From IMG/VR virus record IMGVR_UViG_3300045988_154391: a stretch of 64,000 nt of DNA; one strand, 5' to 3'. Positions 2,374 through 53,135 of the stretch are shown here, piece after piece. A model generated the notes under the pieces. The model saw only the letters and a program-made list of their open reading frames with translations, was not told where the DNA came from and searched no databases. The stretch comes from a virus (Duplodnaviria > Heunggongvirae > Uroviricota > Caudoviricetes). A program made the position numbers and the translations under genes. Position 1 is the first letter of the stretch. The number at the start of each line of letters is the position of its first letter.

Positions 2374-2390
2374 CAATTTATTAGAGCAAA
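2374..2390. promoter_or_regulatory. C1-operator-like 17-mer (15/17 to ATTGCTCTAATAAATTT, reverse orientation)
   Basis: caATTTATTAGAGCAAa read directly; immediately 3' of pacB and upstream of the icd/ant-like module. Confidence 0.45.
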
Positions 2391-2393
2391 TAT

Positions 2394-3878
2394 TCATTCA
2401 TTAAGCCATGCCAGAGCTTCATCAACCTGCGCTTCGTCTTCGACGCTAAGCACTTCATCCTGGGGAACATAATCCGCCAGCATAGCGAAACAATATGTAT
2501 CCCAATGGTCTGGTGAGTGCAGGTTGAGTTTTTTCTTCATATCCTCCTTACTCATCACCTTCCATTGACCTGCGGAGTTAATCCCTACAGGGATTTTCGA
2601 CGCTTCCTCAATAGTTTCATTACCCTTATCCAGTCTCATACGACCAGATTTTACGGCCTCTGCGGCTTGAACGTTGGCATAAGCACGTTTATCAAAGTAC
2701 AGGCTCTTATCTTCACGGCTATGCATCTTTTTACCCCAGCGTATACGCTGTACGGTAATACCATAATACTCGTACATCAGATCCGCCGTTGCTTTACCCA
2801 GCCCATCACCGTCTATCGCTATGGTGATATTTGGAAATCGCTCAGGATTACATTCTGCGAAAATTTTGGCGGCAAGCTGCGTTTCTGTAACGTCTGTGTA
2901 TTCCAGCATTCGATAGTTGATTACACGGCGTTTATTTCTCTGGCCGGACACCATCATGATATTGATAACGGACTTATCCCGTCCCGTACCACCAGCAACG
3001 TCCACACATGCAAGCCAGCCCCATCCTTTGGCAATCTTGACTTTCCGCCGCGTCGCACGTTCAACCTCATCACGTCCAAGAAGGAAGCCATCCTGTGATT
3101 TAGGGAATAGTCCGCGTACCTTAATCATGTACATAGGGTTATCACGCCCGCCGTACTCCGCCAGCTTCATTTTGATAAATGCTGGCGTTACCAGCGGTGA
3201 TTCCTCACTGTTAAGCGTGATCGCCGTATAAACGCCATCAGGGTTACCAGGACGCTTGGCCAGTTTATGGTGAGTATCGTAGAAATAGCCGCTTGGGCGT
3301 GTAGGCTGTGACAGTAATAAGATGCGGTTATCCTGTCCGGTAAGAGCACCGGTGATGATACCGAAAGCTCTATCACTGACACCGGAGGCTTCATCGATAA
3401 TATACAGAAGATGATCTGCGTGTTCACCGGCGAGAGCTTCTTCACTTCCCAGACGAAAGCCCTTCGGTACTACAGTCCATACACCTTTACCAGTAACCTC
3501 ATAGAAAGCGGTTTCTGTCAGAACAAAATAATCAGCAAGCCATGGAAAACGGCTGGTGGCAGTAGCCCAGTTTATCTTGATGTACTTGAATATACCGGTC
3601 ATTACCTGCTGAATTTTGTTCGCAACGATAATGGCGCGGGCACCGGGATACATGATTATGAACAACATGATCATGATAGAAGTCATGTCTGATTTCCCGG
3701 TACCGTGACCAGACGAAACAGATGTCTTGCTACCCTGTTCCTGCACAGACTCAATAATCAGATCCTGCTGCCAGGTAGGTGTTTTGCCGAACAAAACATC
3801 AGCGGCAGCAATCCAGTCATAACGATATAGCGCCACCAGCTCGCGCCAACGTGGATCCGTTACGCAACTTCTGGCCAT
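2394..3878 (-). CDS. pacB: Terminase large subunit (PacB-like)
   Basis: 494 aa; Walker A-like SGHGTGKS; sits directly after pacA with a 1-nt overlap; size matches what I recall for P1 PacB. Confidence 0.75.
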
Positions 3879-5071
3879 TAATCATCATCCCCGTATAGCT
3901 TGCGGGTAACTTCTTCGTCTTCCTCCTCGTCTTCGTCCAGGTCTTGTTCCAGCCATGGGTCGTTTGATACACCTTCAGTATCAACATCTCCATAACCGCC
4001 TGTATCAACGATATCGGCGATTTCTTCCCTACGCTGCTCAATCCACAATGCGGCATCGGCGCGGCGGTTGGCGGCCCGTTCTCGCGCAACTTTGTCCAGA
4101 TCTTCAAGAGAAGGGCCACCGACGGCTGTTTGCCTTTCCTCATCATCGGTATTGGTCTTAGGAGCACGCAGATCGGCTTTGATTTGCTCCAGCATCAGGG
4201 GCGGCACTTTTCCGCCATGCGCCTCGATGAATTCAGCTGCTTCCAGCACTGACCAGTTATTTTCACGCTTTCGTTCGTATGCCAGCTTAACAATGCCAGC
4301 TTGCCCCATAGATAAAGCGTGCTTTTCCGCCTCCCGGCTTTCTTTTCGATAGTTATTCCGAATGCTGTAAATGGTGTTGATCAGGCTGCTTATCTGCGCG
4401 GAACAGCTGTTTAGCATGCTCGCGATACGATATTCAGGCGGAGTCCCTTCATCATCGTCTTTTTGCTGATCGCGCATTTCCTGCACCAGACGAATACACG
4501 TATCCCTGGCGTTCTCCAGCATAAGGAGATGAGAAAGAGACTTTTCCAGAAGAGTGGTTTCCAGAACATCGGCCCCGGACCGACGCAACATAGCGCGCGC
4601 GGCCTTCCGCGCTTCAACGTTATCTATCAGGTAATCGCCAGCTTCGAATTCAAAGCGTTCACCATCATCATCCAGGGTGTCGCGTTCCAGGCGATCACGT
4701 AAGGTCCGGTGGGCGCGGGTGATCACGTCATGATCATCAGAACGATCATTTATGCGCTTATTTTGGCGCTTCGCATTCTCGACTGCGGCACTGACAACGG
4801 CATTAACCCTTTGTTTTTCCGCTATTTCAGCCGCAATGTGATCACCTGCATGTTGATCATTAGAGTGATCAATGATCATGCTTTTTAGTGGCTTCCTGAC
4901 TGGCTTATTTGGCTTGCGGCTGTCCGCTGTCCTGGTGTCTTCTTTGAAGGCACGGAGATAACGACGTGCAGTATTAGGGTTAAGATTAAACTCGGCGGCA
5001 TACTGTGCGATGGTGTAACCACCATCTCGCGCCAGGCGAGCAAAATTCTTCTTGTGATCGTCCCAGGTCAC
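3878..5071 (-). CDS. pacA: Terminase small / pac-recognition subunit (PacA-like)
   Basis: 397 aa; N-terminal HTH-like segment; acidic C-terminus; contains the GATC-hexamer pac site. Confidence 0.7.
4690..4880. other. pac packaging site: two clusters of four GATC-containing hexamers about 95 bp apart
   Basis: GATC at 4693, 4721, 4732, 4744 and at 4840, 4855, 4867, 4874, mostly as TGATCA/C/T; matches the Dam-regulated P1 pac architecture inside pacA. Confidence 0.6.
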
Positions 5072-5156
5072 TTATGCTTCCTTTCGTAAAAACTCTTTTT
5101 GACGCGAGGGTAACGAAAGTCACATGTCAAAAGGCCCGGAACGGGCAAGCAATCAA

Positions 5157-5609
5157 TCAGATACGTGCGGATGTGGCATTACCGTAATGACGGTGCTGAC
5201 GGGCCACCTTATTGAAAAGTTGACGCGCCATTACCCAAGGCTGGTGCTCCCGGCGTTCCTTTTCGTCCTGCGTCATATAGAGTTCGTTCTGGAGTTTTTC
5301 ATCAAACCGGCGCGGAGCGCGGCTACGGCGAAAGAATTCAGGATTCAGAGAGTGGATCTGAAATCTACGTGGGCGTGTACTGTCATCAATCAAAACAGAC
5401 GAATACTTAGACACAGCGATAGCCTTTAAGCGCAGATAAACATCGCGCTTATCGACATCCAGATGCGGGTATTCCTTTTCAAGAATTGCTGCGAGTTCTT
5501 TCGCTGATAGAAGAGATTTAGTGCGGATCATGTAATCCGCAATCTCGTACGATGTTATTCGTGAGTGATTTATTTCCATGAAGTGGCGTCCCTGCCAGTT
5601 AAGTAACAT
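5157..5609 (-). CDS. Hypothetical protein in the position of P1 lpa (late promoter activator)
   Basis: 150-aa ORF directly upstream of pacA with an operator-like site just upstream; call is from synteny only. Confidence 0.35.
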   Translation of the reverse strand: MLLNWQGRHFMEINHSRITSYEIADYMIRTKSLLSAKELAAILEKEYPHLDVDKRDVYLRLKAIAVSKYSSVLIDDSTRPRRFQIHSLNPEFFRRSRAPRRFDEKLQNELYMTQDEKERREHQPWVMARQLFNKVARQHRHYGNATSARI

Positions 5610-5679: not shown

Positions 5680-5696
5680 CAATACATTAGAGCAAT
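5680..5696. promoter_or_regulatory. C1-operator-like 17-mer (14/17)
   Basis: caatacATTAGAGCAAT between ORF 5698..6741 and the lpa-like ORF. Confidence 0.35.
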
Positions 5697-8774: not shown

Positions 8775-9043
8775 GGGCAGGTGTTCCCTTCCGCAAAGTA
8801 GGGAAAATTGCTATCAAGTTCATCACACCATCTGCGATGGTCGTAGCACCAAAACGCCTCCCACGGTGCACGGAAATACTTCATCCACCAGGACACTCGA
8901 TCAGGTATATCTGCTGGTGGCAGTTCTTCTGGCAATAATTTGCCTGATAATTCCCTTTCCGCCCGCGACAGCATTTTTTTGAGGCTCGCGTTCTCTTTTT
9001 CAAGCTCATCTACGCGCACCTGTAATTCAGCTTTCGTTGGCAT
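8759..9043 (-). CDS. Hypothetical small protein
   Basis: ORF 8759..9124 trimmed to an internal Met to limit overlap with the upstream gene. Confidence 0.3.
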   Translation of the reverse strand: MPTKAELQVRVDELEKENASLKKMLSRAERELSGKLLPEELPPADIPDRVSWWMKYFRAPWEAFWCYDHRRWCDELDSNFPYFAEGNTCPQCRG

Positions 9044-9965
9044 GGTCCACCTCATGCTTTTCAGCCACCAGCGGCAATAAAGCCCTGGCCATCTTATGAA
9101 CCAATAGTGCATCAATAATGCCAAGCGTATGCCCCGGCTTAATGTTTAATGCCGCCTCAAGGTGACACCTTTCCAGGTCACTTTTCTCGGCTTGTTTATG
9201 ATGATCTGGTGTAATAACGTCGCCCAAAACACGGCTAATTCTTTCTCGTAATTGCTGGGTGCCAGCACACTTGATCGCTGTATCGTGGAGACGGTTAACC
9301 AGTTCGCGATAAACATGCGGCTTAATGCGGATACGTTCACCGGTGACGCCCTTTCCTGGCGCTGGCACCGAACTATCCGGAATATCCGGATAGTTGCCAG
9401 CCTCGTAAGCTACCCACAGCCAGTGCATGAATGTTTCAGTGGACACACAACCACAGTCCACATCGATTTTCCCGCGTTGCTGTTCCAGCCATTGCCCAAA
9501 ATCCAACCTGTAAGTCTTACTTTCAAGTTCATCACCATTGAACTCGACTTTCTGCGACGCTATGAGAGCTGATTCGTATTGTTCGCGAGTGACAACTGAC
9601 TGGTATTCATCGCTATCAAGGCCACCAATTGGAAGCTCAATCTCACAACAAAAATTGCGCCCAAAGAAAGTGTCTTTTTTGTGGTCTGAGCCAAAAGCAA
9701 AAGTCGCGCATGGTGCCATTAAATTGACACTGGGTAGGTAACAATAACTCATTCCATCAGGCCACCCGCCGCACTTAGGCAGCTCCTTCACTAACAAGTC
9801 GATAAACTTCATTTTTTTATCATCTTTGCAAGCCGCCAAAGCCATTTGGGCAAGTGCCAATACTTCATCTGCCGTATATCCAGCACCGTGACCATACATT
9901 TCGATACGGGAAATAATCTCTGATATACGCTCTTCAGTGATTCTGGTCATTTCTTTTTGCGCCAT
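9027..9965 (-). CDS. Hypothetical protein
   Basis: 312-aa ORF in the co-directional leftward block. Confidence 0.5.
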   Translation of the reverse strand: MAQKEMTRITEERISEIISRIEMYGHGAGYTADEVLALAQMALAACKDDKKMKFIDLLVKELPKCGGWPDGMSYCYLPSVNLMAPCATFAFGSDHKKDTFFGRNFCCEIELPIGGLDSDEYQSVVTREQYESALIASQKVEFNGDELESKTYRLDFGQWLEQQRGKIDVDCGCVSTETFMHWLWVAYEAGNYPDIPDSSVPAPGKGVTGERIRIKPHVYRELVNRLHDTAIKCAGTQQLRERISRVLGDVITPDHHKQAEKSDLERCHLEAALNIKPGHTLGIIDALLVHKMARALLPLVAEKHEVDHANES

Positions 9966-10321
9966 TTCTTTTCACATTCCTTAGTCCATTTTTCAATGTT
10001 CATTTTGGCAATATCAGTCATTCCATCACCTAAGAAATACTTTTTCCGGTACGTCTTGCACTTAAACCACACTACAACAGCCACCAGCCAGAAAATAAAA
10101 GGCCATACGGCAATACCAACTCCAGCCGCGATAAAGCCCAATATCCATAAATGAAGCTCTCCAACTTCTGTTTCCGGCAATATTCTTAAAGAATTAAACA
10201 GCAGGCTGAACGAATGGTCGTATGCATTGGCAGTATAAGACATGCAATCCATATAATTAAAGTCATAGCCTGCGGCTGCCGCCCATAATGGGCGGTCAAG
10301 AAAATGTTTTAGTGTCATCAT
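9947..10321 (-). CDS. Hypothetical membrane protein
   Basis: 124 aa; hydrophobic core FIAAGVGIAVWPFIFWLVAVVVWF; lysine-rich C-terminus. Confidence 0.45.
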   Translation of the reverse strand: MMTLKHFLDRPLWAAAAGYDFNYMDCMSYTANAYDHSFSLLFNSLRILPETEVGELHLWILGFIAAGVGIAVWPFIFWLVAVVVWFKCKTYRKKYFLGDGMTDIAKMNIEKWTKECEKKWRKKK

Positions 10322-10327
10322 ATTAAT

Positions 10328-10621
10328 TTAAGGTTCAGACCAGTTATCTTCAATAGCAATGCTTAATCTTTGTAGCCATTCTGCTAATTTCAGCATTGCT
10401 TCTCTTTCGCTTAAACCACACGGAAAATCATCAAGCGATATTGTTGGCTTGAAGTTTCCCAAATTATCCATTTCAACGGTCAGATTTTGCTCCAGAACGG
10501 TATTTCTTACGCGGCTATTGTGCCGAAGCAAATATACTGAACGTGATTTATTGGTTTTGTGGTCGAACGTATATTCGGTAAGTATCATCTGACTTCCGCC
10601 ATGATTATTACCGCGCCACAT
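10328..10621 (-). CDS. Hypothetical protein
   Basis: 97-aa ORF in the operon-like array. Confidence 0.4.
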   Translation of the reverse strand: MWRGNNHGGSQMILTEYTFDHKTNKSRSVYLLRHNSRVRNTVLEQNLTVEMDNLGNFKPTISLDDFPCGLSEREAMLKLAEWLQRLSIAIEDNWSEP

Positions 10622-10644
10622 AATTACTCCGTGTTAATTGAAAT

Positions 10645-10926
10645 TTAGCTATTAATCTTCACTTTTATCGCGTACACCTTTACCGGTTTATCACCGAAGT
10701 GTGGATGTGTGATTGTTTTTATTTCATATCCGTTATACGGGACGTCAATTCTGCGACTGAAGTCTTCGCGCTTCGGATATCCCTTTGTGATAATCAGGCG
10801 GTCATACTCGCGGAACATAATTCGCTTATTCCAGTAGTCATTACACAGGCGATACTCTTCCGTTTTCTCTCCGCGAATCATGGCATCGAAGTATTCACCT
10901 TTAACGGCAAGTTGCAGGTTAGCCAC
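10645..10926 (-). CDS. Small ASCH/PUA-like domain protein (putative)
   Basis: 93 aa; YFDAMIRGEKTEEYR resembles the ASCH N-terminal signature. Confidence 0.4.
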   Translation of the reverse strand: MANLQLAVKGEYFDAMIRGEKTEEYRLCNDYWNKRIMFREYDRLIITKGYPKREDFSRRIDVPYNGYEIKTITHPHFGDKPVKVYAIKVKINS

Positions 10927-11206
10927 GACCTTCCTCCTTTGGCTTGTGAATTTGTATCGTCATGCCGCTTTGAGTGGTGACTACAACGACAGAACCAGGC
11001 TGAAGACTGTTAAGATTGAATGCTTCGTAAAACGAAGCCAAGGCCAGCGCTTTTTTATTCTTTCGGTTCCACCAACGCCATCCATTGCTACAGGCTACAC
11101 TGACAATCCACTGTCCACTCCTGTAAGCCATATAAAACCAGATGAGCAAAACCTGAATGAATGCTATCCAGTCAATAATCGTATATTTCGCGAAGGAGAC
11201 CATCAA
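10919..11206 (-). CDS. Small membrane protein, paralogue of ORF 12804..13127
   Basis: 95 aa; one hydrophobic helix then a conserved ...A..FYEAF.L....PG... domain; 4-nt overlap with the preceding Ea22-like gene. Confidence 0.45.
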   Translation of the reverse strand: MMVSFAKYTIIDWIAFIQVLLIWFYMAYRSGQWIVSVACSNGWRWWNRKNKKALALASFYEAFNLNSLQPGSVVVVTTQSGMTIQIHKPKEEGRG

Positions 11207-11775
11207 TTAACCTCCTGCGGCGGTTCCGGTAGAGGCATCCAGTACAAGGCGTTCCCTAACCACGATAAAGTGCCGTCGCTCAACTCCACGTATTCCCCTT
11301 GTACCTGTCCTGCCATATACTCGCCGTGCTTTGAATAAATTAAAATCCAATCATCTTGAGCGGGCATTCGCTCACTACAGCTTATCCAACCATCCGGAGT
11401 TACCGGATAGTTGCCCGACAGCTCGTTCAACTTGTAAGTTTGGCTTACAGGTTCGGCTTCCAGTTCTGCAATGCGCTTCTCTGCAGCTTCCAGCTCAACG
11501 CGCAGCTTCCCTACCGTTAGCGCAATTTCCTCGTTCTCCTGGTCGCGGCGTTTGATGTATTGCTGGTTTCTTTCCCGTTCATCCAGCAGCGCCAGCACGG
11601 TTTCTGGTCCGGTCAGAAATTTGAAGGCGTTGAGCGCATCAATATCCACACCGTAATCCTTAAGTTCCTGTTCACTTAACAAATCATCATCAACTGGCAA
11701 CATTAACAGGCGTTCCATTGCCGGAATTGCACGTTCTGCCGCCTCACGCAGTGCCTGATAGTTAATTTTGGTCAT
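11203..11775 (-). CDS. Ead/Ea22-like protein with C-terminal DUF551-like domain
   Basis: 190 aa; N-terminal INYQALREAAERA; coiled-coil AELEAE; C-terminal WISCSERMP...WMPLPEPP. Confidence 0.55.
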   Translation of the reverse strand: MTKINYQALREAAERAIPAMERLLMLPVDDDLLSEQELKDYGVDIDALNAFKFLTGPETVLALLDERERNQQYIKRRDQENEEIALTVGKLRVELEAAEKRIAELEAEPVSQTYKLNELSGNYPVTPDGWISCSERMPAQDDWILIYSKHGEYMAGQVQGEYVELSDGTLSWLGNALYWMPLPEPPQEVN

Positions 11776-11776
11776 A

Positions 11777-12076
11777 TCACATCCTCCTGAAGCCGTTGCA
11801 TTTACGTAAAAAATCGCAGATATAGCCCTTCATTTTTTCGTGCCAATCTCGATCATTCCCATTGCACCAACCATCAGGTGGAGTCCAGTTTTCTATCAGA
11901 GCAGCCATTTTCTTTGCTTTCGCCGGAGTAGCTGTTGCGGTATCGCAGTAATGACGAGTGTCAACCAACGTATCCATACCATCGATATCAAGTACGCAAA
12001 ACCATGTGTGATTCGGCATTTCAACAGATGGTATTTGTTGCCCACGTCGACGTTTATCAATAAGACATACAGTCAC
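11777..12076 (-). CDS. Hypothetical protein
   Basis: 99-aa ORF, tightly packed between two Ea22-like genes. Confidence 0.4.
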   Translation of the reverse strand: MTVCLIDKRRRGQQIPSVEMPNHTWFCVLDIDGMDTLVDTRHYCDTATATPAKAKKMAALIENWTPPDGWCNGNDRDWHEKMKGYICDFLRKCNGFRRM

Positions 12077-12807
12077 TGGTTGCCTCCTTTGCGAAGCTGG
12101 GCAGCAAAGTCAACTAACCACTCAGTCATTTCAACCTTCCCTACCAGGTCTGAACCAGGGTGCATACAGCAATCACTCTGCGCCGCTTTGAAATCCTTAT
12201 ACTCATATTCTTGGGCCACCAGATTTTTTGCAGCTTCTATAGCAGCATCCACGCCCTGCGCCCGCACTTCAGCCAGGAAAGCATCGGTGGCTGGCATATT
12301 TCCTGTTGCCTTCATGGCCTCCAAAATAACCAGAACGCCATCTCGCCCAACCACCTCAGCGATAACCTCAGTGTTGTCGCCAACAACATCGCAGAATGCC
12401 TGAACTGCCTTACGAGCCAGCTCATTCTCCACTGCCAGCGCCGTGCGATTACCCTCCAGCTCTGCAATGCGCTGTTTTGCGGCATCCAGTTCAATCGACA
12501 ATTTTTCCAACTGCTCTTGATGCTTCTTGTATTCCTGATATGCGTGCCAAGACTGACCTTTGCGCACACTATCAGTGATATCAGTAATCTGTTCTGGTGT
12601 TAGCGTGGTCAGTGGCTGTGATGGGAAAATAAGCACTTTCCCGGAATCCCAATCAAAACCAGCGTGAATTGACTGAACCTCAACTGAAGGTGTTGAACCA
12701 ATGCTGCCAGGCGAATGAACAACGATTGTTACATCCATATCGCGACGATGGCTGTGGTTGTTGGACAAAATACGATTCACCAACTCAGAAAATTTGGAAA
12801 ATTTCAT
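12073..12807 (-). CDS. Ea22-like paralogue
   Basis: 244 aa; coiled-coil AAKQRIAELEGNRTALAVENELARKA; shares ATDAFLAE(I/V)RA with ORF 13091..13966. Confidence 0.5.
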   Translation of the reverse strand: MKFSKFSELVNRILSNNHSHRRDMDVTIVVHSPGSIGSTPSVEVQSIHAGFDWDSGKVLIFPSQPLTTLTPEQITDITDSVRKGQSWHAYQEYKKHQEQLEKLSIELDAAKQRIAELEGNRTALAVENELARKAVQAFCDVVGDNTEVIAEVVGRDGVLVILEAMKATGNMPATDAFLAEVRAQGVDAAIEAAKNLVAQEYEYKDFKAAQSDCCMHPGSDLVGKVEMTEWLVDFAAQLRKGGNQ

Positions 12808-13127
12808 GCTGATTCCCCTTTCTCTGCTCTCTCCTGTCGGAACATCACTATCATCAGGTCGCCTTTTGTCGCTATCCTGGCTGTTGTACCTGGTTCAATG
12901 CGGCTAAGCTCAAATGCGTCATAGAACGCTTCTAATGCCTTCTGGCGTAGTTCCTGTTTGCGCCGTTTTTTCCACTGTTTTAGGAAAATGGAACCCAGCC
13001 ATCGCCATGTGCGGGACATGATGTAAAGCCAACCGAGAAGTGCCAGACCGGTATTTAGGAGCGTATCGATCGTTATTGTCGTGTCGATATTCACTGGCTG
13101 CTTCCTTTGCGAATCTGTTCCGCCCAT
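12804..13127 (-). CDS. Small membrane protein, paralogue of ORF 10919..11206
   Basis: 107 aa; hydrophobic helix then ALEAFYDAFELSRIEPGTTARIATKGDLMIVMF; overlaps the 3' end of the preceding Ea22-like gene by 37 nt. Confidence 0.45.
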   Translation of the reverse strand: MGGTDSQRKQPVNIDTTITIDTLLNTGLALLGWLYIMSRTWRWLGSIFLKQWKKRRKQELRQKALEAFYDAFELSRIEPGTTARIATKGDLMIVMFRQERAEKGESA

Positions 13128-13966
13128 TCTTCAAGGGATTTCTCCGCATATTCACCAGACAGGCCATCAATCGGATGCGCTTCATTAGCCAACTCTTCTT
13201 TCGCTGACAAAATCATGCGTGTAACGTCGAAAACTTCACGCAAAGACTTATTGATAAATCCGTGATTGAACGCAGCAGCAAGACGGCTGGCGGTATAGTT
13301 AATCCCCTCGTTGCGTGCTTCCGCACGAATTTCAGACAGGAAAGCATCGGTGGCTGGGGTTTCGACATTAGGTCGAAGCTCATAATCACAAACTCTTTCA
13401 ATCCATGGTGATACTCTGTCGCATTTCCTCTTCTTGCGTTCACCGACCTTGGTTGCCTGCTGAATAATTACCCCCCAGCAAATGCTTTCGACCTCTTCGC
13501 TCCATCCATCGCAAGCATCGCCTCTATAGTCGTCAATTGCAGCCTCAGCAGCAGCGATAGCCTCCTCAGCAGTTTTGTGACACTCGAAACTAAATTCAGA
13601 GCCATATGAGAAATACATAGCCCCGGCCTTCAGCGCCGCATTCTCCGCTGCCAGCGCCGCGAGATTAGTCTCAAGCTCTGCAATTCGACACATAGCATCA
13701 ATATTTGTGTCCTCCAGGCGCTTAATTTCACCAAGCAGCTCCAGTGCAACCTTTGGGTTGAACGCGGCAACATAACGAGCGTTGTTCTCTGCATTTTTCT
13801 GTCCATCAAAGCCGGTCCATTTGATAACGTCTTCACATCGTTCATCACCGGGCGTGTGCACCGCATAAGTACCAGTATCCGTCGAAATAAATGCGACCCA
13901 TTCGTCTGGTGTTGCCTTTTCTGCCGCCTCACGCAGTACCTGATAGTCAATTGTCATTCTCGCCAT
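13091..13966 (-). CDS. Ead/Ea22-like protein
   Basis: 291 aa; N-terminal DYQVLREAAEKATPDEWV; coiled-coil RIAELETNLAALAAENAALKA. Confidence 0.55.
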   Translation of the reverse strand: MARMTIDYQVLREAAEKATPDEWVAFISTDTGTYAVHTPGDERCEDVIKWTGFDGQKNAENNARYVAAFNPKVALELLGEIKRLEDTNIDAMCRIAELETNLAALAAENAALKAGAMYFSYGSEFSFECHKTAEEAIAAAEAAIDDYRGDACDGWSEEVESICWGVIIQQATKVGERKKRKCDRVSPWIERVCDYELRPNVETPATDAFLSEIRAEARNEGINYTASRLAAAFNHGFINKSLREVFDVTRMILSAKEELANEAHPIDGLSGEYAEKSLEEWAEQIRKGSSQ

Positions 13967-14598
13967 CCTTCACAGTTGTAATCACTACAGCCTTCAAAAT
14001 CATATGGGCTGTACTGCCAGGTTATTTTTCCGCAATGCGGACAATTCCAACGCACCTTCCCGCTTCGCGACTTCTTTCTTCTGTTTTGCTTTTTCAACCA
14101 GTCAGGCATGACCAAACCTGCGCCCTGAACCATTGTTCTGCGGTTAAAGTTATTGATATTGAACGTCCGGCGCTTTGCTGCATCAGCAATGGAAAATGGC
14201 AACCAAACTATTCCTGGTTCGTTTTTGTTGGCGACGCTAAAGATGGTCGCTTTACTGAAGTCATCTGTTGGCAATCCACCGTGTTGAAGCCAGTAAACAT
14301 CGTTGCCGTTCCAGCTACCTTTTTTGTAGGCCACATACGCAGTGCAATCTGACTCAATCAGGCTTTCTGTAGGGATGTACTGGCAATCAACGTGCCACAC
14401 AGCCATTGCATCCACGCTATCAGCGCAAACAGGCTGATCGATATCTCGTCCACAATTCCAGGCTTTTTGGGCTGCTTCCAGCGTGTAAACATGAGCGCGA
14501 TCGATATCAGAACTGTAACCATTGCCGTTATGGCAATGGAATGAGGCGTTATTACCCACAGTTTCACGCAAGCACATCATGTAAAAGCGGTTATTCAC
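13954..14598 (-). CDS. Hypothetical protein with C-terminal Cys-rich zinc-ribbon-like motif
   Basis: 214 aa; CPHCG...C..YNC near the C-terminus. Confidence 0.45.
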   Translation of the reverse strand: MNNRFYMMCLRETVGNNASFHCHNGNGYSSDIDRAHVYTLEAAQKAWNCGRDIDQPVCADSVDAMAVWHVDCQYIPTESLIESDCTAYVAYKKGSWNGNDVYWLQHGGLPTDDFSKATIFSVANKNEPGIVWLPFSIADAAKRRTFNINNFNRRTMVQGAGLVMPDWLKKQNRRKKSRSGKVRWNCPHCGKITWQYSPYDFEGCSDYNCEGWRE

Positions 14599-14806
14599 TG
14601 GATGCCTCCCAGCAAATTTGTCTTATATAAGAACTGTTAACGCGCTTTACTTTCCCGTCGAACTCCAGTTTCTTTAGACGACGCAAAACGTATGCCGTTT
14701 TGAGTGTGCGATATTTATCCCTAAGCCAGTTGGTCACGACGTAAGTCATACAGCGCCCGTGTTCTTCCAACACCCGAACTATTTCTTCGTCGGTTGGCTT
14801 GCTCAT
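14591..14806 (-). CDS. Hypothetical small basic protein
   Basis: 71-aa ORF, overlapping neighbours by a few nt. Confidence 0.4.
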   Translation of the reverse strand: MSKPTDEEIVRVLEEHGRCMTYVVTNWLRDKYRTLKTAYVLRRLKKLEFDGKVKRVNSSYIRQICWEASSE

Positions 14807-15024
14807 TTTGTCGCTCCTTCAGCTTTCTCTACTTTCGCTGCCATGATTTCCAGCTTTTGTGCTGCCGATGCCGCTAACCTGTGAAATTCATCATCTGTTT
14901 CAACTGGAATTGGTACAAACCTGACACCAATTTGAGCAAGGCTATGCGCCATTTCGAGACTTGCTCTTAACTCTGCTGGGGATGCTTTATTCAGGCCGAC
15001 TTCCTCACAAATAACTGATTGCAT
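14803..15024 (-). CDS. Hypothetical small protein
   Basis: 73-aa ORF. Confidence 0.4.
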   Translation of the reverse strand: MQSVICEEVGLNKASPAELRASLEMAHSLAQIGVRFVPIPVETDDEFHRLAASAAQKLEIMAAKVEKAEGATK

Positions 15025-15033
15025 ACGCTCGCC

Positions 15034-15639: not shown

Positions 15640-15817
15640 GCATCCCCCTTACCCATGTGCGACGATGCCGCCAAAAGTGATAGAGAACAGCCAGAAATAG
15701 ATCGCGGCCATAATGATTTTGAATGCCGTGTTCATATTTTCATCTCCTGTGATTGATTGGATACATGCCGCGCCTTGCGGCATGTTTTTATTTTCACTTT
15801 CTCTGTTTTAAAAATCA

Positions 15818-15834
15818 ATATTTATTAGAGCAAT
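15818..15834. promoter_or_regulatory. C1-operator-like 17-mer (16/17)
   Basis: AtATTTATTAGAGCAAT abutting the 3' end of the HAD-like gene, upstream of ORF 15034..15639. Confidence 0.5.
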
Positions 15835-39408: not shown

Positions 39409-39409
39409 T

Positions 39410-39690: not shown

Positions 39691-39700
39691 TGGTATTGAT

Positions 39701-40510
39701 ATGCAAGAAGAGAAACAACACTACCTCTACGTTCTGGTGCCGGAGAACGGAGATACTTTTAAAATCGGCATTTCATGTGGTCCATTGGCACGGTTTAAAG
39801 GGCTACAAGTGAATCCCGATTTTGCGCTTTCACGGGTCTATCGTGGTACGCGTTTGGCAATAGTTAATCTTGAGCGGGCTTTACACGCAACCTTTTTCCC
39901 CTGGAATGCGCCGTGGGAGAAAAGCGCCGGTGGCGGGCATACTGAATGGTTTACACGAGAGTGTCTTGATAAGGTTTTGGCTCATATCGAATATCTAAAT
40001 GATATGTGGGGAGGGATTCTCGAGCGGATTAAGTCGAATGATTTACTTCAGCGTCCAGTAGATGCTGCTCGCTCTTTCGAAAAAGAACTGGATGTTACTT
40101 CTATCGTGACTTTCAAAGATGACGCAGGAATGAGGGATGTGGCTTATGTCTCCATATCTGGCTATGAACCTGACGCGATCCGCGCTCAATGTGAATTGCT
40201 GAAAGCGATGTTTACGCTTCGGACTAAATATCCCTGGGAGACAGGGCGGGTGTGCTTCCCTATGGAAGAGTTAACCGCCACCATTGATTCCCAGCTTTAC
40301 CACGATAATCCAGAGAAGTTTTTTAGCCTTTTAGCCGGTAATGGGCTTAACTGTGTGTCCGGACTGGGGCGAAGTAGAATCCAACATGCCTCGCTCTTCG
40401 GTCCCTTCTTTTACGATCGAAACGGGTGCTTTGAGGCTGAACTTCCGGCGCTTACGCGTGCTATAGATACTATCGATTTCGAACGATTATTCGCAGCTCT
40501 TAACAAATAA
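39701..40510 (+). CDS. T5orf172/MUG113-type (GIY-YIG-like) domain protein
   Basis: 269 aa; N-terminal YLYVLVPENGDTFKIGIS...RFKGLQ...GGGHTEWF matches the T5orf172 signature as I recall it; lies between the iterons and parA and has its own terminator. Confidence 0.5.
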   Translation: MQEEKQHYLYVLVPENGDTFKIGISCGPLARFKGLQVNPDFALSRVYRGTRLAIVNLERALHATFFPWNAPWEKSAGGGHTEWFTRECLDKVLAHIEYLNDMWGGILERIKSNDLLQRPVDAARSFEKELDVTSIVTFKDDAGMRDVAYVSISGYEPDAIRAQCELLKAMFTLRTKYPWETGRVCFPMEELTATIDSQLYHDNPEKFFSLLAGNGLNCVSGLGRSRIQHASLFGPFFYDRNGCFEAELPALTRAIDTIDFERLFAALNK

Positions 40511-40517
40511 CACTGAT

Positions 40518-40538
40518 GCCCCTGAACGGGGCTTTTTT
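40518..40538 (+). terminator. Rho-independent terminator
   Basis: GCCCC-tgaac-GGGGC followed by TTTTTT, 8 nt after the stop. Confidence 0.65.
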
Positions 40539-40678
40539 GTGCCCTCCTTGCAACTCTCTATCGTGCAAAATGAACCAAACATGCAGAGAATGCTATGTAC
40601 AAGCATCTACGCATACATTATTATTTTATGCAGCATTTTTAATTAAATTCAAAAATACAGCATAAAGGATGACTTTCG

Positions 40679-48457: not shown

Positions 48458-48482
48458 AAAGCTCCTTCGGGAGCTTTTTTTA
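48458..48482 (+). terminator. Rho-independent terminator
   Basis: AGCTCC-ttcg-GGAGCT followed by a T7 run. Confidence 0.65.
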
Positions 48483-48609
48483 TAACTATTTTATATAAAC
48501 ATGCATCGATAACATTGTCTGGAGTTTTATGTTAGATTATTAATGTTCTAATAAACTACAATTATTGAGGTAGATGTTTGTGCCTGTACTGTTAAAGGGG
48601 GACTCTAAA

Positions 48610-49206
48610 ATGGCTGTGATTCCAATGTCGTACTCCCCGGGTACTGTCGCTCGTCGATTTTCGATCCTGGACGGAGTTACCATCCAGGGTGTGCTTTACC
48701 AGGTTATATGGGATTCCAAAACCCCATTTGCAGCTGTAATAGAGGCTGCGCCTTCTATTATCGATGGTGATATGCGCCATAAGGTTGTCGCTACTCTTGA
48801 ACTTCAACGTCGCCCGCAGCTTGAAGGCGTACTGGTAAGGAAGTTCTGGGAGGATAGCGATGTTGCCCAGATTGAAGGTATCGTGGTTGATGGAACCGTC
48901 CGGGATGTCGGTTTAGCTACTTTTGTTTACGAAACCGTAGCCTCAAAAGCTGGTGTTGTTTTGCTCAGTGATAATGAGCAATACGAAGGTGGAAAAGCTC
49001 TTTGGCAACACATCGCCCGTCGCTCTTCCGAGCTAAAAGTGTTTATCCTTGACACCGATGCCGCTCAGTATTACCCGTTTGACGGCGAACGTGTTTGCTA
49101 TGACGGGGTAAGTATTCCTGAATCCGAGATATGGAGTGAACACCCAGATCGAAGTAAGCATGGGGTTGTTCTGGTCGCTGAATCCATAATTGGAAATGCG
49201 GCATAG
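48610..49206 (+). CDS. Hypothetical protein, isolated gene with its own AT-rich upstream region
   Basis: ORF 48574..49206 trimmed to the ATG at 48610 (AGGGGGA upstream). Confidence 0.4.
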   Translation: MAVIPMSYSPGTVARRFSILDGVTIQGVLYQVIWDSKTPFAAVIEAAPSIIDGDMRHKVVATLELQRRPQLEGVLVRKFWEDSDVAQIEGIVVDGTVRDVGLATFVYETVASKAGVVLLSDNEQYEGGKALWQHIARRSSELKVFILDTDAAQYYPFDGERVCYDGVSIPESEIWSEHPDRSKHGVVLVAESIIGNAA

Positions 49207-49388
49207 CAGTAAAAAATTCCTTGCTCCTTAAAAGGGGAGAGGGTTAATCTACGTATGCTAAGCATAGATATGGCCTCAGATTAATGTTAAGCGTCTTGCA
49301 GGACGCGTAATGTTATCTGGGGCTTTCTTCTATCTGCTTTTCGGGTAATGCCTGAAGCAGATAGCCTCAAGCACCCGCAACGATTGTA

Positions 49389-49634
49389 TCAATGTCTGGC
49401 TTTTTTTCTATAGAAATCACCTGGAAGGGTGAATATCCACATCAGAAGAAATGTTGCAGCAAACATGATCCCTAATGGCCAGACCGCGCCAAAGAAAATC
49501 CATTCTAAGATCTCCTCTGCTTGTTCTTTGCGGTCGATATCGACAAGCATTTTTCGGCTGATCATGTATACACAGAAGCCAATACAAACATATTCTGCAA
49601 AAGCGATCGCTAACTGTAAAAAATCAGATTGCAT
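49389..49634 (-). CDS. Small membrane protein downstream of repL
   Basis: ORF 49389..49715 trimmed to an internal Met to avoid overlapping repL; two hydrophobic segments. Confidence 0.35.
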   Translation of the reverse strand: MQSDFLQLAIAFAEYVCIGFCVYMISRKMLVDIDRKEQAEEILEWIFFGAVWPLGIMFAATFLLMWIFTLPGDFYRKKARH

Positions 49635-49684
49635 CTCCGACCTCAAACTGAAAACGCCAGGTGACTCCAGATTAGAGCAATCTA

Positions 49685-50530
49685 TCACCCTCTGAATCCT
49701 GCCGGTATACCCCATTGTTCGTTATCTTTATTTTTGGCTAAAACCGCATTAAGAGCTTCGTTTACCGTCATGCAATGCGGCAAATTATCGAAGTTTGATA
49801 CCCCGCCAATATCAGGAGAACGCTTGTTCTTCAGGTAAGCATATTTCCGCGCTGCCGCCTCTACTTTCTGCTTGAACTCATGTTTTTGAGCGCGCTTTTT
49901 GGATAACCGCAGATTGTCAGCCTTTGCTTTTGCCTCAGCGATCCATGAAGTCAATTTTTTGAGTCTGCTCGTTCCGGCACCGCCGGAAACTGATCTTTTT
50001 GTTTTTTTAACTTGTGACTTCTTATTCTTTATTGCCACGTCATCCTGACAGGGGGAGGGGGTATCATTTTGACATGGGGGTGTGGATAAAAAATTAAATA
50101 AAGCCAATGTCTTAGCGAGAACAGCTTTAACCTTGGTTGCCGCTGAAGAGATCTTTAATTTGCTTTCAATCAGCGCATTTTTGGCTTGTTGTGCGAAGGC
50201 CAAAAAGGATGGCGTAAACCGGTACAGGTTAGCGCGACGTTCACGGTGATCGCCGATAACAATCTCTACAGACAGAATTCCTTTGTTTACAGCTTCACGG
50301 AATGCACGAACGACGGTTGATTGGCTATAACCAGTTTCTGCCGCGATCAGGCGGTGAGGCTTGTGAATGAAGTATTCACTGGTTGTTGCCGCGAGATTTG
50401 CACATTGCGACAGGATATGCCCGGCGCTACGGGATAGACCGGAGTATGTTACAAAGCAGGCCAATTCATAGCCAGAAAAAGTAAAATCGCTCATCGTTAT
50501 ACAGCTCAGGAAAGTGACTTTAGCCAGCAT
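49685..50530 (-). CDS. repL: Lytic replication initiator RepL-like protein
   Basis: 281 aa directly downstream of the kilA-like gene, as in the P1 kilA-repL operon. Confidence 0.65.
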   Translation of the reverse strand: MLAKVTFLSCITMSDFTFSGYELACFVTYSGLSRSAGHILSQCANLAATTSEYFIHKPHRLIAAETGYSQSTVVRAFREAVNKGILSVEIVIGDHRERRANLYRFTPSFLAFAQQAKNALIESKLKISSAATKVKAVLAKTLALFNFLSTPPCQNDTPSPCQDDVAIKNKKSQVKKTKRSVSGGAGTSRLKKLTSWIAEAKAKADNLRLSKKRAQKHEFKQKVEAAARKYAYLKNKRSPDIGGVSNFDNLPHCMTVNEALNAVLAKNKDNEQWGIPAGFRG

Positions 50531-50559
50531 TACAATGCTGGTGGTTCTTACTACGTCTG

Positions 50560-51360
50560 TTAGCGCGTTGCCGCGACAGGTACCAGCACACCAGCATCAA
50601 GCAATCGCTTCATCAGCCACTGCTGACCTTTGCCGGTTATACGAGTCGTGAAAGAAATCCTGCTTCCATTGCTTGTATCGATCACGGTTTCTTTAAGGGT
50701 GAAATACCCACGGGATATGTATTCTTGTTTGGGGACGTTCCTGCGTTCACCGGTTGCGATCAGAATTCCGTTATCACGCAACCAGGTGAAGAGATAGTTT
50801 TGGCCCAGGCCGAGCACTTTGGCATAGTTGCCGATTAGAACCCCGCTGGCGGTAGCAACGCGTTCGGCGAATTCGACTTTAGGTGCATCCATAAGCATTT
50901 TTTGCTCCAGCCGTTGCTTTTGCTCTGCCAGGTCGGCAGCCAAACGGAGAGCTTCAGGGAGACTCTGCGGAATAGCAGGTTGTAATCTTCCAGCTCGATA
51001 GTCGATAAATGTCTGGTTTACCTTCAGCCGAAACGCGGGAGAAATCCAGCCTGCGTACTCCACAGCGAGCAATTCATGGGCAAAAGTGCCGCCGCCACGG
51101 CCTTCGAACGAAACTATGCAATTCTGCATAGTTTCTTTTTCAAGCTCTTCGATGAGCTGTTTGGCTGACAGCGTTCTTAGCCATTGAGCTGGCGCTTTAT
51201 GGGCACCGAGTCCGCTCGCTCTGTGTAGAGCATTAAGGTTGTAACGGCCAGCGCGGTCGGTCGTAATTTCAACACCACAAATAACAGGCAGAGTGGTTGA
51301 AGGATCGACATTTTGATGAAGGTTTGATATATTCATATCCGCATTGAATGTTTGTTGCAT
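50560..51360 (-). CDS. kilA: KilA-like protein (KilA-N domain plus KilAC/ANT C-terminal domain)
   Basis: 266 aa; C-terminal 120 aa paralogous to both Ant-like proteins; operator-like site upstream. Confidence 0.65.
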   Translation of the reverse strand: MQQTFNADMNISNLHQNVDPSTTLPVICGVEITTDRAGRYNLNALHRASGLGAHKAPAQWLRTLSAKQLIEELEKETMQNCIVSFEGRGGGTFAHELLAVEYAGWISPAFRLKVNQTFIDYRAGRLQPAIPQSLPEALRLAADLAEQKQRLEQKMLMDAPKVEFAERVATASGVLIGNYAKVLGLGQNYLFTWLRDNGILIATGERRNVPKQEYISRGYFTLKETVIDTSNGSRISFTTRITGKGQQWLMKRLLDAGVLVPVAATR

Positions 51361-51429: not shown

Positions 51430-51446
51430 AAATTTATTAGAGCAAA
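51430..51446. promoter_or_regulatory. C1-operator-like 17-mer (16/17) upstream of kilA-repL
   Basis: AAATTTATTAGAGCAAa. Confidence 0.55.
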
Positions 51447-51523
51447 TTTTTCTGACTCGATCCAGATCGGGTTGGTCGATCTGCTCAGAAACCTGCCAGT
51501 TTGCTGGCAGGTTTTTTCTTTTG

Positions 51524-52570
51524 TTAACCTATTGCTACTGGTTTTAACAAACCAGCATCAAGTAGCTTGCGAGTTAACCACTGCTGGCCTTTACCCGTTA
51601 ATTGGGGCGTCAGCCGTATCTGGTAGCCATTTTCATCATCCAGCACCACTTCTTTCACCGTGAAATATCCGGCGTTAATGTACTGCTGGCGCGGTACGTT
51701 TTTGCGCGCACCAAAAGCCATGAGAATGCCGTTCTGGCGCAACCATGAGAAAAGGGCGTTTTGCTTAAGTCCAACGACCTTTGCAAAGTTCCCGATCAGG
51801 ATTCCATTAGCCACTGATACCCGGTCGGCAAAATCGACTTTAGGGGCTGCGGCCACCAGCTGTTGTTCCAACTGCATTTTCTGTTCTGCCAACTCGGCAG
51901 CCAGGCGTAGAGCTTCTGGTAATGTTTGGGGGATCGATGGGGTAGGGGAGTTTGCCTGCTGCAATTCTTCCAGTTTGTCGATCAGCGAACGGCGGACCGC
52001 TTTCGATTCGCGAGCAGCAACGCGCAGGGCTTGTTTGTATGTCATTACTATAACTACCTGATCCGCTCCACCTTTTTTCTTATCCATAGGGGTTACGAAG
52101 ATTTCGTAACCCTCCCCATCAAGCTCATCCTTAACTCTGGCAATGAAATCATTGTTGCGAACTGGTTTTTCGCTACATAATTTCCGTGCCTCATTGACCA
52201 TCTTTAACAGTGTCAGGCTGTCGATTGTGTCTCCGGTGTTGGGGATAATATTCACGGCTGGTGCTGGCGTAGCTGACGTAACAGGTGCTGGTTTTTCAAC
52301 ATTCAAATTATTACCGGTCATTCTATGTGCCTCCTTTCTCATTTCTGCTGCCACTGTTGCGTAACGTAGACGTCCTTGTTCAATCAAATAATCCCTGATC
52401 TCGGCTATCAGTAGCCTGTTGATCACAGCCTTATCTGTTCGGGTATAAAAACGCCTGGTTATCATGAAATAGTTAGCAATTGCGCCGGGGATCTCCCGTG
52501 TCGGCATACAGGCAGTATGCAAAGCGATCGCTTCGGCTATTTCATTACGGGTGACGAGAGGTTTTTTCAT
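51524..52570 (-). CDS. ant: Antirepressor (Ant-like) with KilAC/ANT C-terminal domain
   Basis: 348 aa; N- and C-terminal thirds paralogous to ORF 722..1837, central third different; 4-nt overlap with the icd-like gene. Confidence 0.75.
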   Translation of the reverse strand: MKKPLVTRNEIAEAIALHTACMPTREIPGAIANYFMITRRFYTRTDKAVINRLLIAEIRDYLIEQGRLRYATVAAEMRKEAHRMTGNNLNVEKPAPVTSATPAPAVNIIPNTGDTIDSLTLLKMVNEARKLCSEKPVRNNDFIARVKDELDGEGYEIFVTPMDKKKGGADQVVIVMTYKQALRVAARESKAVRRSLIDKLEELQQANSPTPSIPQTLPEALRLAAELAEQKMQLEQQLVAAAPKVDFADRVSVANGILIGNFAKVVGLKQNALFSWLRQNGILMAFGARKNVPRQQYINAGYFTVKEVVLDDENGYQIRLTPQLTGKGQQWLTRKLLDAGLLKPVAIG

Positions 52571-52788
52571 AAAACCCCCTGAACGTCGGCAGAGAAGGGG
52601 AGGTTCCAGTAACTAAGTGAATTGCGCGAGTTAGTTGAAAAACGGGCAGTAAAAATGCAGGGGCCATCAGGCAATTGGGAGCGTGCTTCGTCTTCTGTTG
52701 CTGCGATAACGAAGTGATAGTGGTGTTTTTTACAGGAATAGAAACGCCAGATGAATTCTTGGCGTGCGCAAGGATTGGCATTAACCAT
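52567..52788 (-). CDS. icd: Icd-like small protein (73 aa)
   Basis: Paralogue of ORF 1834..2055; translationally coupled to ant. Confidence 0.55.
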   Translation of the reverse strand: MVNANPCARQEFIWRFYSCKKHHYHFVIAATEDEARSQLPDGPCIFTARFSTNSRNSLSYWNLPFSADVQGVL

Positions 52789-53118
52789 AGTTACGGCCTC
52801 GTAAGTTGATAAACAACCTGCGACCCGCTGTCAAACAGGTGGCAGGACGTGACAGGGTTGACAGACTGGCACTTACGAAACCAGCAGGCCGAAGCCTCCC
52901 CATCACGCCCCACCATAATTCGGGCGTAACGTGGTTTTACGGACACAAAAATACCGCAATATCGGAAATGTGCGGTTGTCCGCGTAAGTATTCAGGCTGT
53001 CAAACCTGGTCGCAGAATTTGCTGCGACGGCGGAACTATAAGCCTGAACGATTAAAAGGTCAATATGATGCGAAAAGATAGCATTCGTGACTTAAAAATA
53101 CAAATTTATTAGAGCATT

Positions 53119-53135
53119 GTTTGTTTAATAAATAC
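53119..53135. promoter_or_regulatory. C1-operator-like 17-mer (16/17) upstream of the icd-ant leader
   Basis: AAATTTATTAGAGCAtT. Confidence 0.5.

Follow-up and report, generated by a model that had tools for sequence, protein, structure and literature searches.

Introduction

The C1 operator network of the phage-plasmid P1 consists of asymmetric 17-bp sites, which are annotated in the GenBank record AF234172 as protein_bind features for the 'phage repressor C1'. In this record, Obanab 'controls expression of ban', and tRNA-Asn, tRNA-Thr, tciABC, tRNA-Ile and ban all lie downstream of Obanab on the same strand. Odmt/Pdmt is located upstream of uhr-hrdC-dmt. According to the notes in the P1 record, Lxc strengthens the binding of C1 at all C1 operators. 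Immunity in P1 and P7 is tripartite, with immC, immI and immT, and the immI operon is arranged as Op51, the promoters P51a and P51b, c4, icd and ant1/2.

Related antirepressor modules have been described in lambdoid prophages, for example isrK-orf45-anrP of Salmonella Gifsy-1 and isrK/C4-Rha/Ant of Stx phages (PMC4825925). These modules contain a short RNA with a terminator, a small coupled ORF and an antirepressor. In addition, an insertion between c1 and pacB of P1-like elements has already been noted (PMC6906374); in the literature, no description was found of the operator, RNA genes or orthogonality of the module at this position. Here, the 17-mers scattered over a viral DNA stretch of 64,000 nucleotides (the window) are compared with these systems. 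They are the well-known C1 binding sites of P1, and the sole addition is an extra operator at a second antirepressor module.

Sequence search and motif analysis

Two motif searches with shuffle controls were used. The 17-mer ATTGCTCTAATAAATTT was searched with at most three mismatches, with 100 dinucleotide shuffles as the control. A position weight matrix (PWM) was built from 17 annotated P1 operators, with at least 14 bits as the threshold for a strong site and 200 shuffles as the control. When applied to P1, this matrix recovered three operators that had been left out of its training (Oref 18.8, Omat 19.2 and Ossb 24.7 bits) and scored two further, unannotated sites at about 17 bits each. 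Coordinates were transferred through the window-P1 alignment onto the protein_bind features of AF234172.

The window and its repressor

In a sequence search, the window matched P1, P7, RCS47 and similar elements at 96-98% identity, which identifies it as a P1-like phage-plasmid (Punavirus). The cognate repressor is encoded by the same element as the operators. Its part within the window (residues 56-283) is identical to P1 C1.100 at 226 of 228 amino acids (99%). The first 55 codons and the 5' end of c1, together with the Op99 operators, lie to the left of the window, and lxc and coi are also outside it.

The operators shared with P1

The search with ATTGCTCTAATAAATTT gave 11 matches where 0.24 were expected, and the maximum in the shuffles was two. 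With the PWM, 12 sites passed the 14-bit threshold, scoring 18-27 bits, compared to a shuffle mean of 0.9 and a maximum of four. Of these 12, eleven are positional orthologs of annotated C1 operators in AF234172, and ten of the 11 shared intact sites are base-for-base identical to P1. The exception is OpmgT (Op88), which has ATAT at its 3' end instead of the ATCT of P1. The features are listed in Table 1.

Table 1. C1 operators and associated features in the window. Mismatches are counted against ATTGCTCTAATAAATTT.
Feature	Position	Strand	Mismatches	Remarks
c1, 3' 228 codons and stop	1-689	+		1-688 corresponds to the P1 c1 region, 96.4% nucleotide identity
ant, copy A	722-1837	-		371 aa; ORF6N and KilAC antirepressor domains
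icd-like ORF, copy A	1834-2046	-		70 aa; 79% identical to copy B Icd
C4 antisense RNA, copy A	2110-2197	-		RF01695, 75.9 bits (gathering score 45)
isrK-type leader RNA	2222-2299	-		RF01394, 60.8 bits (gathering score 50); a1/b1 target sites
Intrinsic terminator of the leader	2227-2243			Terminator-like site in scan
Extra C1 operator TTTGCTCTAATAAATTG	2374-2390	-	2	20.9 bits; heads second immI-like module; no P1 counterpart
lpa	5157-5609	-		
Olpa (Op94)	5680-5696	-	3	Upstream of lpa; position and sequence identical to P1
OpmgT (Op88)	15818-15834	-	1	Upstream of early operon 15639->9027
OpmgRb (Op86b)	17910-17926	+	3	Identical to P1
OpmgRa (Op86a)	17959-17975	-	3	Upstream of pmgR-pmgS; identical to P1
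Oppp (Op83)	20676-20692	+		18.3 bits; identical to P1; weak inverted partner overlaps at 20687-20703
O26 (Op82)	21583-21599	+	2	Between pmgL and gene 26; 24.7 bits; identical to P1
ban operon body	27742-31464	-		Downstream of Op72
ban	27742-29112			
tRNA(CAT)	29392-29467			
SPFH-domain ORF	29495-30322			
tRNA-Ser	30803-30889			
tRNA-Thr	31311-31386			
tRNA-Asn	31389-31464			
Obanab (Op72ab), first half	32122-32138	+	2	ban-operon promoter, bivalent; identical to P1
Obanab (Op72ab), second half	32133-32149	-	0	Identical to P1
Odmt (Op68)	35979-35995	-	1	Upstream of uhr-hrdC-dmt (35907->32140); identical to P1
Orlf (Op55) remnant	49665-49681	-		First 11 bases retained, mosaic junction thereafter
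repL	49685-50530			
kilA	50560-51360			
OrepL (Op53)	51430-51446	-	1	Upstream of kilA and repL; identical to P1
ant1/2, copy B	51524-52570			
icd, copy B	52567-52788			
c4, copy B	52835-52920			
Oc4 (Op51)	53102-53118	-	1	Upstream of c4; identical to P1

A competing explanation is that the 17-mers arise by chance or from base composition in generic, promoter-like AT-rich intergenic DNA without a specific repressor. The motif is indeed AT-rich, and between 8 and 13 bits its weak matches are about as frequent as in the shuffles (26 observed and 21 expected with a threshold of 8 bits). However, the excess at the strong threshold, the conservation of G4, C5 and C7 in nearly all operator sites and the coincidence of all strong sites except one with annotated P1 operators leave this explanation a vanishingly small probability; two shuffle controls and positional orthology rule it out as the source of the 17-mers.

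The reading that the 17-mers, including the extra site, are operators of the primary immunity repressor C1 in a P1-like phage-plasmid is, on this sequence evidence, considered to be correct with a probability of about 0.9. The sites exist far beyond chance, as positional orthologs of the P1 operators, together with a repressor that is nearly identical to that of P1. The window also shares with P1 the 17-bp consensus, the downstream operons and the 11-bp offset between the two halves of Op72ab. Since the overall identity to P1 is high, the conservation of the 11 shared sites provides little independent evidence. The overlap or adjacency of these sites with sigma-70 promoters is carried over from the annotated P1 promoters. 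The finding mainly confirms that the window is a phage-plasmid of the P1 type, in which the network of C1 operators is intact.

A preliminary description of this DNA had proposed scattered operator-like 17-mers upstream of the second icd/ant copy, lpa, an early operon, the tRNA cluster, the dmt operon, kilA-repL and the other icd/ant copy. The sites do lie upstream of these units: the early operon is of the pmgT type, the tRNAs belong to the ban operon, the dmt operon is uhr-hrdC-dmt, and the other icd/ant copy is c4-icd-ant. The inverted pair OpmgRb/OpmgRa was described correctly, and so was the perfect site at 32133 with its overlapping inverted partner. Its last site is located at 53102-53118, 53119 being the base past the end. 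Oppp and O26 are two true sites that were missing from its list. The weaker site that it listed at 49665 is a truncated Orlf/Op55: the remnant matches at 11 of 17 positions (ATTGCTCTAAT followed by unrelated bases), scores below 8 bits and probably no longer binds C1. At this point, the window differs from P1 in that rlfAB has been replaced by a segment containing hok/sok.

In window 53.3-64 kb, the PWM found zero operators, and none are annotated in the corresponding part of P1. Further operators were also sought in the segments that are not shared with P1. Only AATGTTCTAATAAACTA at 48542-48558 (+) was seen, with 13.4 bits, and it is not claimed as an operator: it is without the invariant C5, and its score falls within the range of the shuffle maxima (mean 14.7 bits). 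An unknown 210-aa ORF starts 15 nt downstream of this sequence.

Proposed repression and induction

By analogy with P1, a C1 monomer would occupy each of the asymmetric 17-bp sites and act as a repressor in this element. The operators would overlap or abut sigma-70 promoters, and bound C1 would block RNA polymerase during the plasmid prophage state. This would silence lpa (the late-promoter activator), the pmgT- and pmgR-type early operons, ppp, the gene 26/pmgL units, the ban operon with its tRNAs, uhr-hrdC-dmt, kilA-repL for lytic replication and the c4-icd-ant antirepressor operon. Inactivation of C1 by Coi or Ant would then allow all silenced units to fire together. The extra operator would bring the second isrK/C4-icd-ant module under the same control, in a layout as at Op51.

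A second immI-like module between c1 and pacB

The extra operator lies within an insertion (689-2395) that P1 lacks. It heads a second immI-like module, referred to as copy A, which is located between c1 and pacB and is common to about 270 plasmids. At least 80% of the 111-nt stretch holding the operator is present in 272 plasmids. Copy B is the canonical immI operon downstream of Oc4 (Op51).

As in the immI operon of P1 and P7, both copies have an operator, two sets of putative promoter hexamers, a C4 RNA that scores above the gathering score of Rfam, icd, an Ant with KilAC, and duplicated a/b targets that are complementary to C4, of which b2 covers the icd ribosome-binding site (AAGGAGG in copy A). 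Copy A differs in its location, its isrK-type leader with its own terminator, its a/b pairs and the ORF6N domain in the middle of Ant. Its icd stop overlaps the ant start (ATGA), indicating translational coupling; this overlap was verified for copy A only.

The a1 sequence TTGGCCT is complementary to the C4 RNA of copy A. By eye, a2 (TTGGTCT, one G-U pair) and b1/b2 (GTCTAAGG, one G-U pair each) can also pair. The C4 RNA of copy A is predicted to pair solely with its own a/b target sites, and its targeting specificity differs from that of the canonical copy. In copy B, the a' loop is as in P1, and the b' loop is CGTAAGT, compared to CACTAAC in P1 and CACAATC in P7. The C4 RNA of copy B is neither of the P7 type nor of the P1 type. 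The earlier assignment of a P1-like immunity holds for immC, which comprises C1 and the operators. It does not hold for immI, in which the canonical b' loop is unlike those of both phages and the second module has yet another C4 specificity.

The Ant proteins of copy A and copy B are 54% identical overall. Because the last ~140 amino acids are about 93% identical to those of the canonical Ant (own count from the alignment), we infer that Ant of copy A could also inactivate C1. The alignment also indicates an internal, Ant2-like start at Met84.

At the extra operator, a putative promoter (TTGTGT-N17-TACATT) has a -35 hexamer that, by eye, overlaps the 3' end of the operator, and it is followed by a putative second promoter (TTGAGG-N17-TATCAG). 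A scan with a generic promoter consensus flagged neither of them. In our reading, the hexamers match at about 7 of 12 positions, the same quality as the experimentally known P51a of P1. The operator and both hexamer pairs line up with Op51, P51a and P51b of copy B, in the same -35 geometry, which suggests that this site would place the module under the control of C1.

The origin of this arrangement can be compared with the lambdoid modules. The copy A leader matches the isrK family of Rfam, and Stx-phage modules annotated as 'isrK' and 'C4 antisense RNA' share 79% identity with it over ~275 nt. In lambdoid phages and in D6, the module has a strong promoter of its own (TTGACT-N18-TATATT in Stx phage F004), and no C1-like 17-mer was found in 400 nt around the F004 promoter (best match 10 of 17). 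The P1-like version has a C1 operator and Op51-type twin promoters instead. A derivation of the copy A promoter region from lambdoid isrK modules was rejected, as the homology extends no further upstream than the start of isrK and the DNA before it in those modules is without a C1 site.

The extra site could also be a non-functional hitch-hiker, a remnant of an immI promoter region that was copied together with the ant module, with copy A independent of C1 or silent. Its conservation would then merely reflect a recent insertion. Such a remnant would fit the limited age suggested by the 93-99% identity of the insertion among the best-matching records listed, the failure of both putative promoters in the generic scan and the functioning of related lambdoid isrK modules without a C1 site. 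This explanation is nevertheless judged unlikely. In six relatives, positions 2-17 of the operator and the promoter stretch are invariant, while the C4 loops and their a/b targets split into two covarying types. In addition, the site scores higher than the two unannotated hits in P1, and its geometry relative to the -35 hexamer matches Op51. The invariance of the operator despite the diverged, covarying C4 loops and targets indicates that selection has acted on the copy A module as it evolved.

Another possibility is that the 17-mers serve both as operators and as short shared homologies at exchange boundaries, so that part of their scatter reflects mosaic junctions. P1 homology resumes 5 bp beyond the extra operator, and the replacement of rlfAB begins after base 11 of Op55. 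However, these are two cases only, the other junctions (9408/15064, 29476, 30705, 38327, 48480 and 53330) lie away from operators, and eleven bases are short for homologous recombination. This dual role is thus regarded as improbable, somewhat more so than the hitch-hiker.

With C1 control of copy A as the favored reading, a broader proposal can be made at a little under even odds: about a third of P1-like phage-plasmids, including this element, may carry a second immI module between c1 and pacB, with an isrK-type leader, its own C4, icd and ant, wired to C1 by an Op51-like operator and twin promoters. If true, two antirepressors would act against the master repressor, and each would be gated by its own antisense RNA, with specificities that differ. 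This would change the rules for heteroimmunity, for induction by superinfection and for cross-talk among P1-like plasmids that reside in the same cell.

Contents of the operons proposed to be repressor-controlled

The suggestion that the tRNA cluster and the dmt operon are controlled by the repressor was correct by analogy with P1, in which the same operators (Op72ab and Op68) are annotated. As the P1 annotation already places dmt and the tRNA-containing ban operon under C1, nothing new is added on regulation itself. For the ban operon and its tRNAs, a literature search gave nothing usable, and this statement is based on the GenBank feature table. The sites are useful for annotating the operators, early operons and immunity type.

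The point of interest is that the content of the regulon drifts while the operators stay fixed. An operator now heads the second, orthogonal antirepressor module, and Op55 has been cut by a module swap. In the ban operon of the window, a fourth tRNA and an SPFH-domain gene take the place of the tciABC of P1, and the Op88 operon contains 5.65 kb with lambdoid ea-type genes that are absent from P1; these genes are now inside C1-controlled operons. Such drift matters for predicting the immunity and induction of P1-like plasmids, many of which carry resistance genes. P1 pmgT was also considered as a possible fusion of the first and last ORFs of the 5.65-kb segment. In this form, the idea was not supported: the first ORF alone is homologous to pmgT.

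The C1 Operator Set

In P1, each asymmetric 17-mer operator is bound by the repressor C1, which thereby occludes the overlapping sigma-70 promoter. C1 is inactivated by Coi and by Ant1/2, and its binding is strengthened by Lxc/Bof. This mechanism is reportedly known from the work of Eliason and Sternberg, of Velleman, Citron and Schuster, and of Lobocka et al. 2004.

By megablast the window belongs to the P1 group (Punavirus): RCS47, SJ46, P1 and P7 are 96-98% identical to it over 67-93% of two searched stretches. It runs in reverse relative to the P1 record AF234172, starting inside c1 (P1 93.9 kb) and extending leftwards beyond immI (P1 ~48 kb); by extrapolation, its right end past immI would correspond to tail genes. 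The 3' part of c1 occupies positions 1-689 and encodes 228 C1 residues, 226 of them identical to P1 C1, while codons 1-55 of the gene and the Op99 operators fall to the left of the window. Two stretches, 38327-40577 and 53330-54407, which hold the plasmid replication region (oriR-repA-incA) and the region for sim superimmunity, have no megablast-level alignment to P1, and the element thus appears to carry variant replicon and sim modules.

A preliminary description had proposed that scattered operator-like 17-mers outline a P1-like repressor regulon. A mismatch-tolerant scan for ATTGCTCTAATAAATTT found 11 matches with at most three mismatches, where 0.24 are expected; the highest count among 100 dinucleotide-preserving shuffles was 2. 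The matrix scan that had been suggested was run with a position-weight matrix built from 17 operator sequences of the P1 annotation; it scored 12 sites at 14 bits or more, whereas 200 shuffles averaged 0.9 such sites and never exceeded 4. The 17-mers thus stand out from the shuffled background, and chance matching is excluded. Three P1 operators left out of the matrix were all recovered (Oref 18.8, Omat 19.2 and Ossb 24.7 bits), and only two unannotated hits, ~17 bits each, occur in ~92 kb of P1.

Operators were assigned by projecting window coordinates onto P1 through the alignment and comparing them with the protein_bind features that the P1 record labels 'phage repressor C1'. Ten of the 11 intact sites with a P1 counterpart are base-identical to P1, and OpmgT is one base off. 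This positional match bears out the proposed regulon, which is the textbook P1 C1 regulon in a close relative. The original site list was correct overall, except that its last site had been placed at 53119 and that two good sites, Oppp and O26, were missing; the site described as weaker, Orlf, is indeed weak (11 of 17 positions, below 8 bits). The matrix scan found no operator in 53.3-64 kb, and the corresponding P1 region has no annotated operator either.

According to the P1 record, Lxc 'enhances binding of C1 to all its operators'. The same record puts Obanab and P1ban at the dmt 3' end, with the note 'controls expression of ban'; tRNA-Asn, tRNA-Thr, tciABC, tRNA-Ile and ban come next on that strand, and Odmt/Pdmt lies upstream of uhr-hrdC-dmt. 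Because the window shares this layout, the suggested repressor control of the tRNA cluster and the dmt operon appears right, and such control is already part of the P1 annotation.

Op83 is monovalent by P1 annotation but may be bivalent. At 20676-20703, a partner, CTTAAAATAATAAATTA (10.9 bits), overlaps it in inverted orientation; this partner is similar to Oc1b (ACGAAAATAATAGATTT) and offset by 11 bp as in Oc1ab and Obanab. In addition, a T-run (often TTTTTAA) lies at +20 to +25 from the operator's first base, 3-8 nt beyond the 17-mer, in 10-13 of 17 independent operators (0.7-1.2 bits/position, against 0.71 for the 99.9th percentile of random columns). It may belong to the spacer of a common promoter cassette, form a degenerate second half-site, or extend the stretch contacted by C1 or Lxc.

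Features located in the window
Feature	Position	Strand	Remarks
ATTGCTCTAATAAATTT matches, at most 3 mismatches	2374, 5680, 15818, 17910, 17959, 21583, 32122, 32133, 35979, 51430, 53102
Candidate C1 operator TTTGCTCTAATAAATTG	2390-2374	-	20.9 bits; only site without P1 counterpart
isrK-type leader	2299-2222	-	Rfam 60.8 bits (gathering score 50)
Terminator in leader	2243-2227	-
C4 antisense RNA, copy A	2197-2110	-	75.9 bits (gathering score 45)
Icd homolog, copy A	in 689-2395	-	70 aa; 79% identical to canonical Icd
Ant, copy A	in 689-2395	-	371 aa; ORF6N + KilAC domains
Olpa/Op94	5680		lpa, 5157-5609
OpmgT/Op88	15818		early operon 15639->9027
OpmgRb and OpmgRa/Op86	17910 and 17959		pmgR-pmgS
Oppp/Op83	20676	+	ppp unit
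O26/Op82	21583	+	gene 26 / pmgL
Obanab/Op72ab (bivalent)	32122 + 32133		ban operon
Odmt/Op68	35979		uhr-hrdC-dmt
Orlf/Op55 remnant	49665		no unit; rlfAB replaced
OrepL/Op53	51430		kilA-repL
Oc4/Op51	53102-53118		c4-icd-ant
T-run examples	2351-2371, 15797-15817, 35958-35978, 53081-53101
~12 small co-oriented ORFs	15034-15639 down to 9027-9965	-	include Ead/Ea22-like, DUF4752, DUF7739 and DUF551 proteins
SPFH/Band-7 domain protein	29495-30322	-	275 aa
tRNA-Ser(UGA), fourth of ban operon	30803-30889	-	ARAGORN; sub-threshold in Rfam
sok-type antitoxin RNA	49202-49376	-	Rfam 94.7 bits

An Additional Antirepressor Module

The modestly interesting remainder consists of an antirepressor module, orthogonal by its predicted pairings and with its own candidate C1 operator, and of cargo turnover in C1-controlled operons. 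The c1-pacB gap is 24 bp in P1, whereas in the window it holds a 1.7-kb insertion (689-2395) with a second isrK/C4-icd-ant module (copy A; copy B is the canonical immI module). The insertion was noted previously, with RCS47 named (PMC6906374); the searched literature yielded nothing on its operator, its RNAs or their specificity. The copy A icd stop overlaps the ant start (ATGA), and its Ant is 54% identical to canonical Ant overall and ~93% over the last ~140 residues (counted by hand from the alignment).

The 3' end of the candidate operator overlaps a -35-like TTGTGT, with TACATT 17 nt beyond, and a second pair, TTGAGG-N17-TATCAG, is aligned with the constitutive P51b of P1. A generic promoter scan flagged neither pair; by reading, P1's own P51a hexamers (TTGTAT / TATCTT) seem no better. 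That the site is a non-functional hitch-hiker is disfavoured by its Op51-like geometry and by its constancy where C4 types have diverged: in six relatives whose C4 loops and a/b targets form two covarying types, positions 2-17 of the operator do not vary, nor does the promoter stretch. This speaks for maintenance of the site, as do the plasmid counts: the 111-nt operator/promoter stretch is at least 80% present in 272 PLSDB plasmids, all at 90% identity or more, and the whole insertion in 268 of ~816 matching plasmids. Stx phages and D6 carry related isrK/C4 modules, but homology begins only at the isrK start, and these modules have their own strong promoter and no C1-like 17-mer; the copy A operator/promoter cassette thus appears specific to the P1 context.

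The copy A C4 is predicted to pair with TTGGCCT/TTGGTCT and GTCTAAGG, its b2 site lying over the icd ribosome-binding site (a2 and b pairings read by eye, one G-U pair each), and that of copy B with TTGACAG and ACTTACG. Since these pairings differ, the two modules should be orthogonal. The copy B C4 (52835-52920, minus strand) has its a' loop as in P1, whereas its b' loop is CGTAAGT, with matching b1/b2 targets, compared with CACTAAC in P1 and CACAATC in P7; it would represent a third immI specificity.

Between the convergent c1 and copy A ant stops, a GC-rich hairpin, ATGCCCGG-CATCAA-CCGGGCAT (693-716), is likely a bidirectional terminator insulating c1 from the inserted module.

Gene Turnover Around C1 Operators

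Orlf/Op55 retains just ATTGCTCTAAT, and from the next base unrelated DNA replaces P1 rlfA/rlfB. Mosaic junctions coincide with operators in two cases only, here and at 2374-2390, a hint that segments may at times be exchanged at the conserved 17-mers. The segment standing in for P1 pmgF-rlfB-rlfA (48480-49671), whose right-hand junction lies inside Op55, presumably carries a hok/sok addiction module, given its sok antitoxin RNA. Its 210-aa ORF has no Pfam match, and a weak operator-like 17-mer (48542-48558, 13.4 bits) lies upstream.

Directly 3' of Op88, 5.65 kb (9408-15064) have no P1 counterpart; of the ORFs there, the first alone (201 aa) is matched by P1 PmgT, over the N-terminal 232 PmgT residues. 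Parts of this segment are 96-99% shared with Stx-converting and P22-like (CUS-3) phages, and the ORF run thus appears to place lambdoid 'ea'-type accessory genes inside a C1-controlled operon.

The tRNA-Ser(UGA) is absent from P1 but 96-97% identical in P7 (unannotated there) and D6 (annotated as tRNA-Ser), with relatives at 83% in rV5-like (Vequintavirinae) phages. Between the tRNAs and ban, P1's tciA-tciB-tciC give way to the SPFH/Band-7 gene and a 78-aa ORF, which remain within the Op72-controlled operon. Finally, dmt (32140-34728, minus strand) encodes 862 aa, compared with the 2265-nt CDS (~754 aa) of P1, and P1 has nothing that aligns with its central ~750 bp (33256-34007), a sign that a methyltransferase or target-recognition domain may have been swapped or added.
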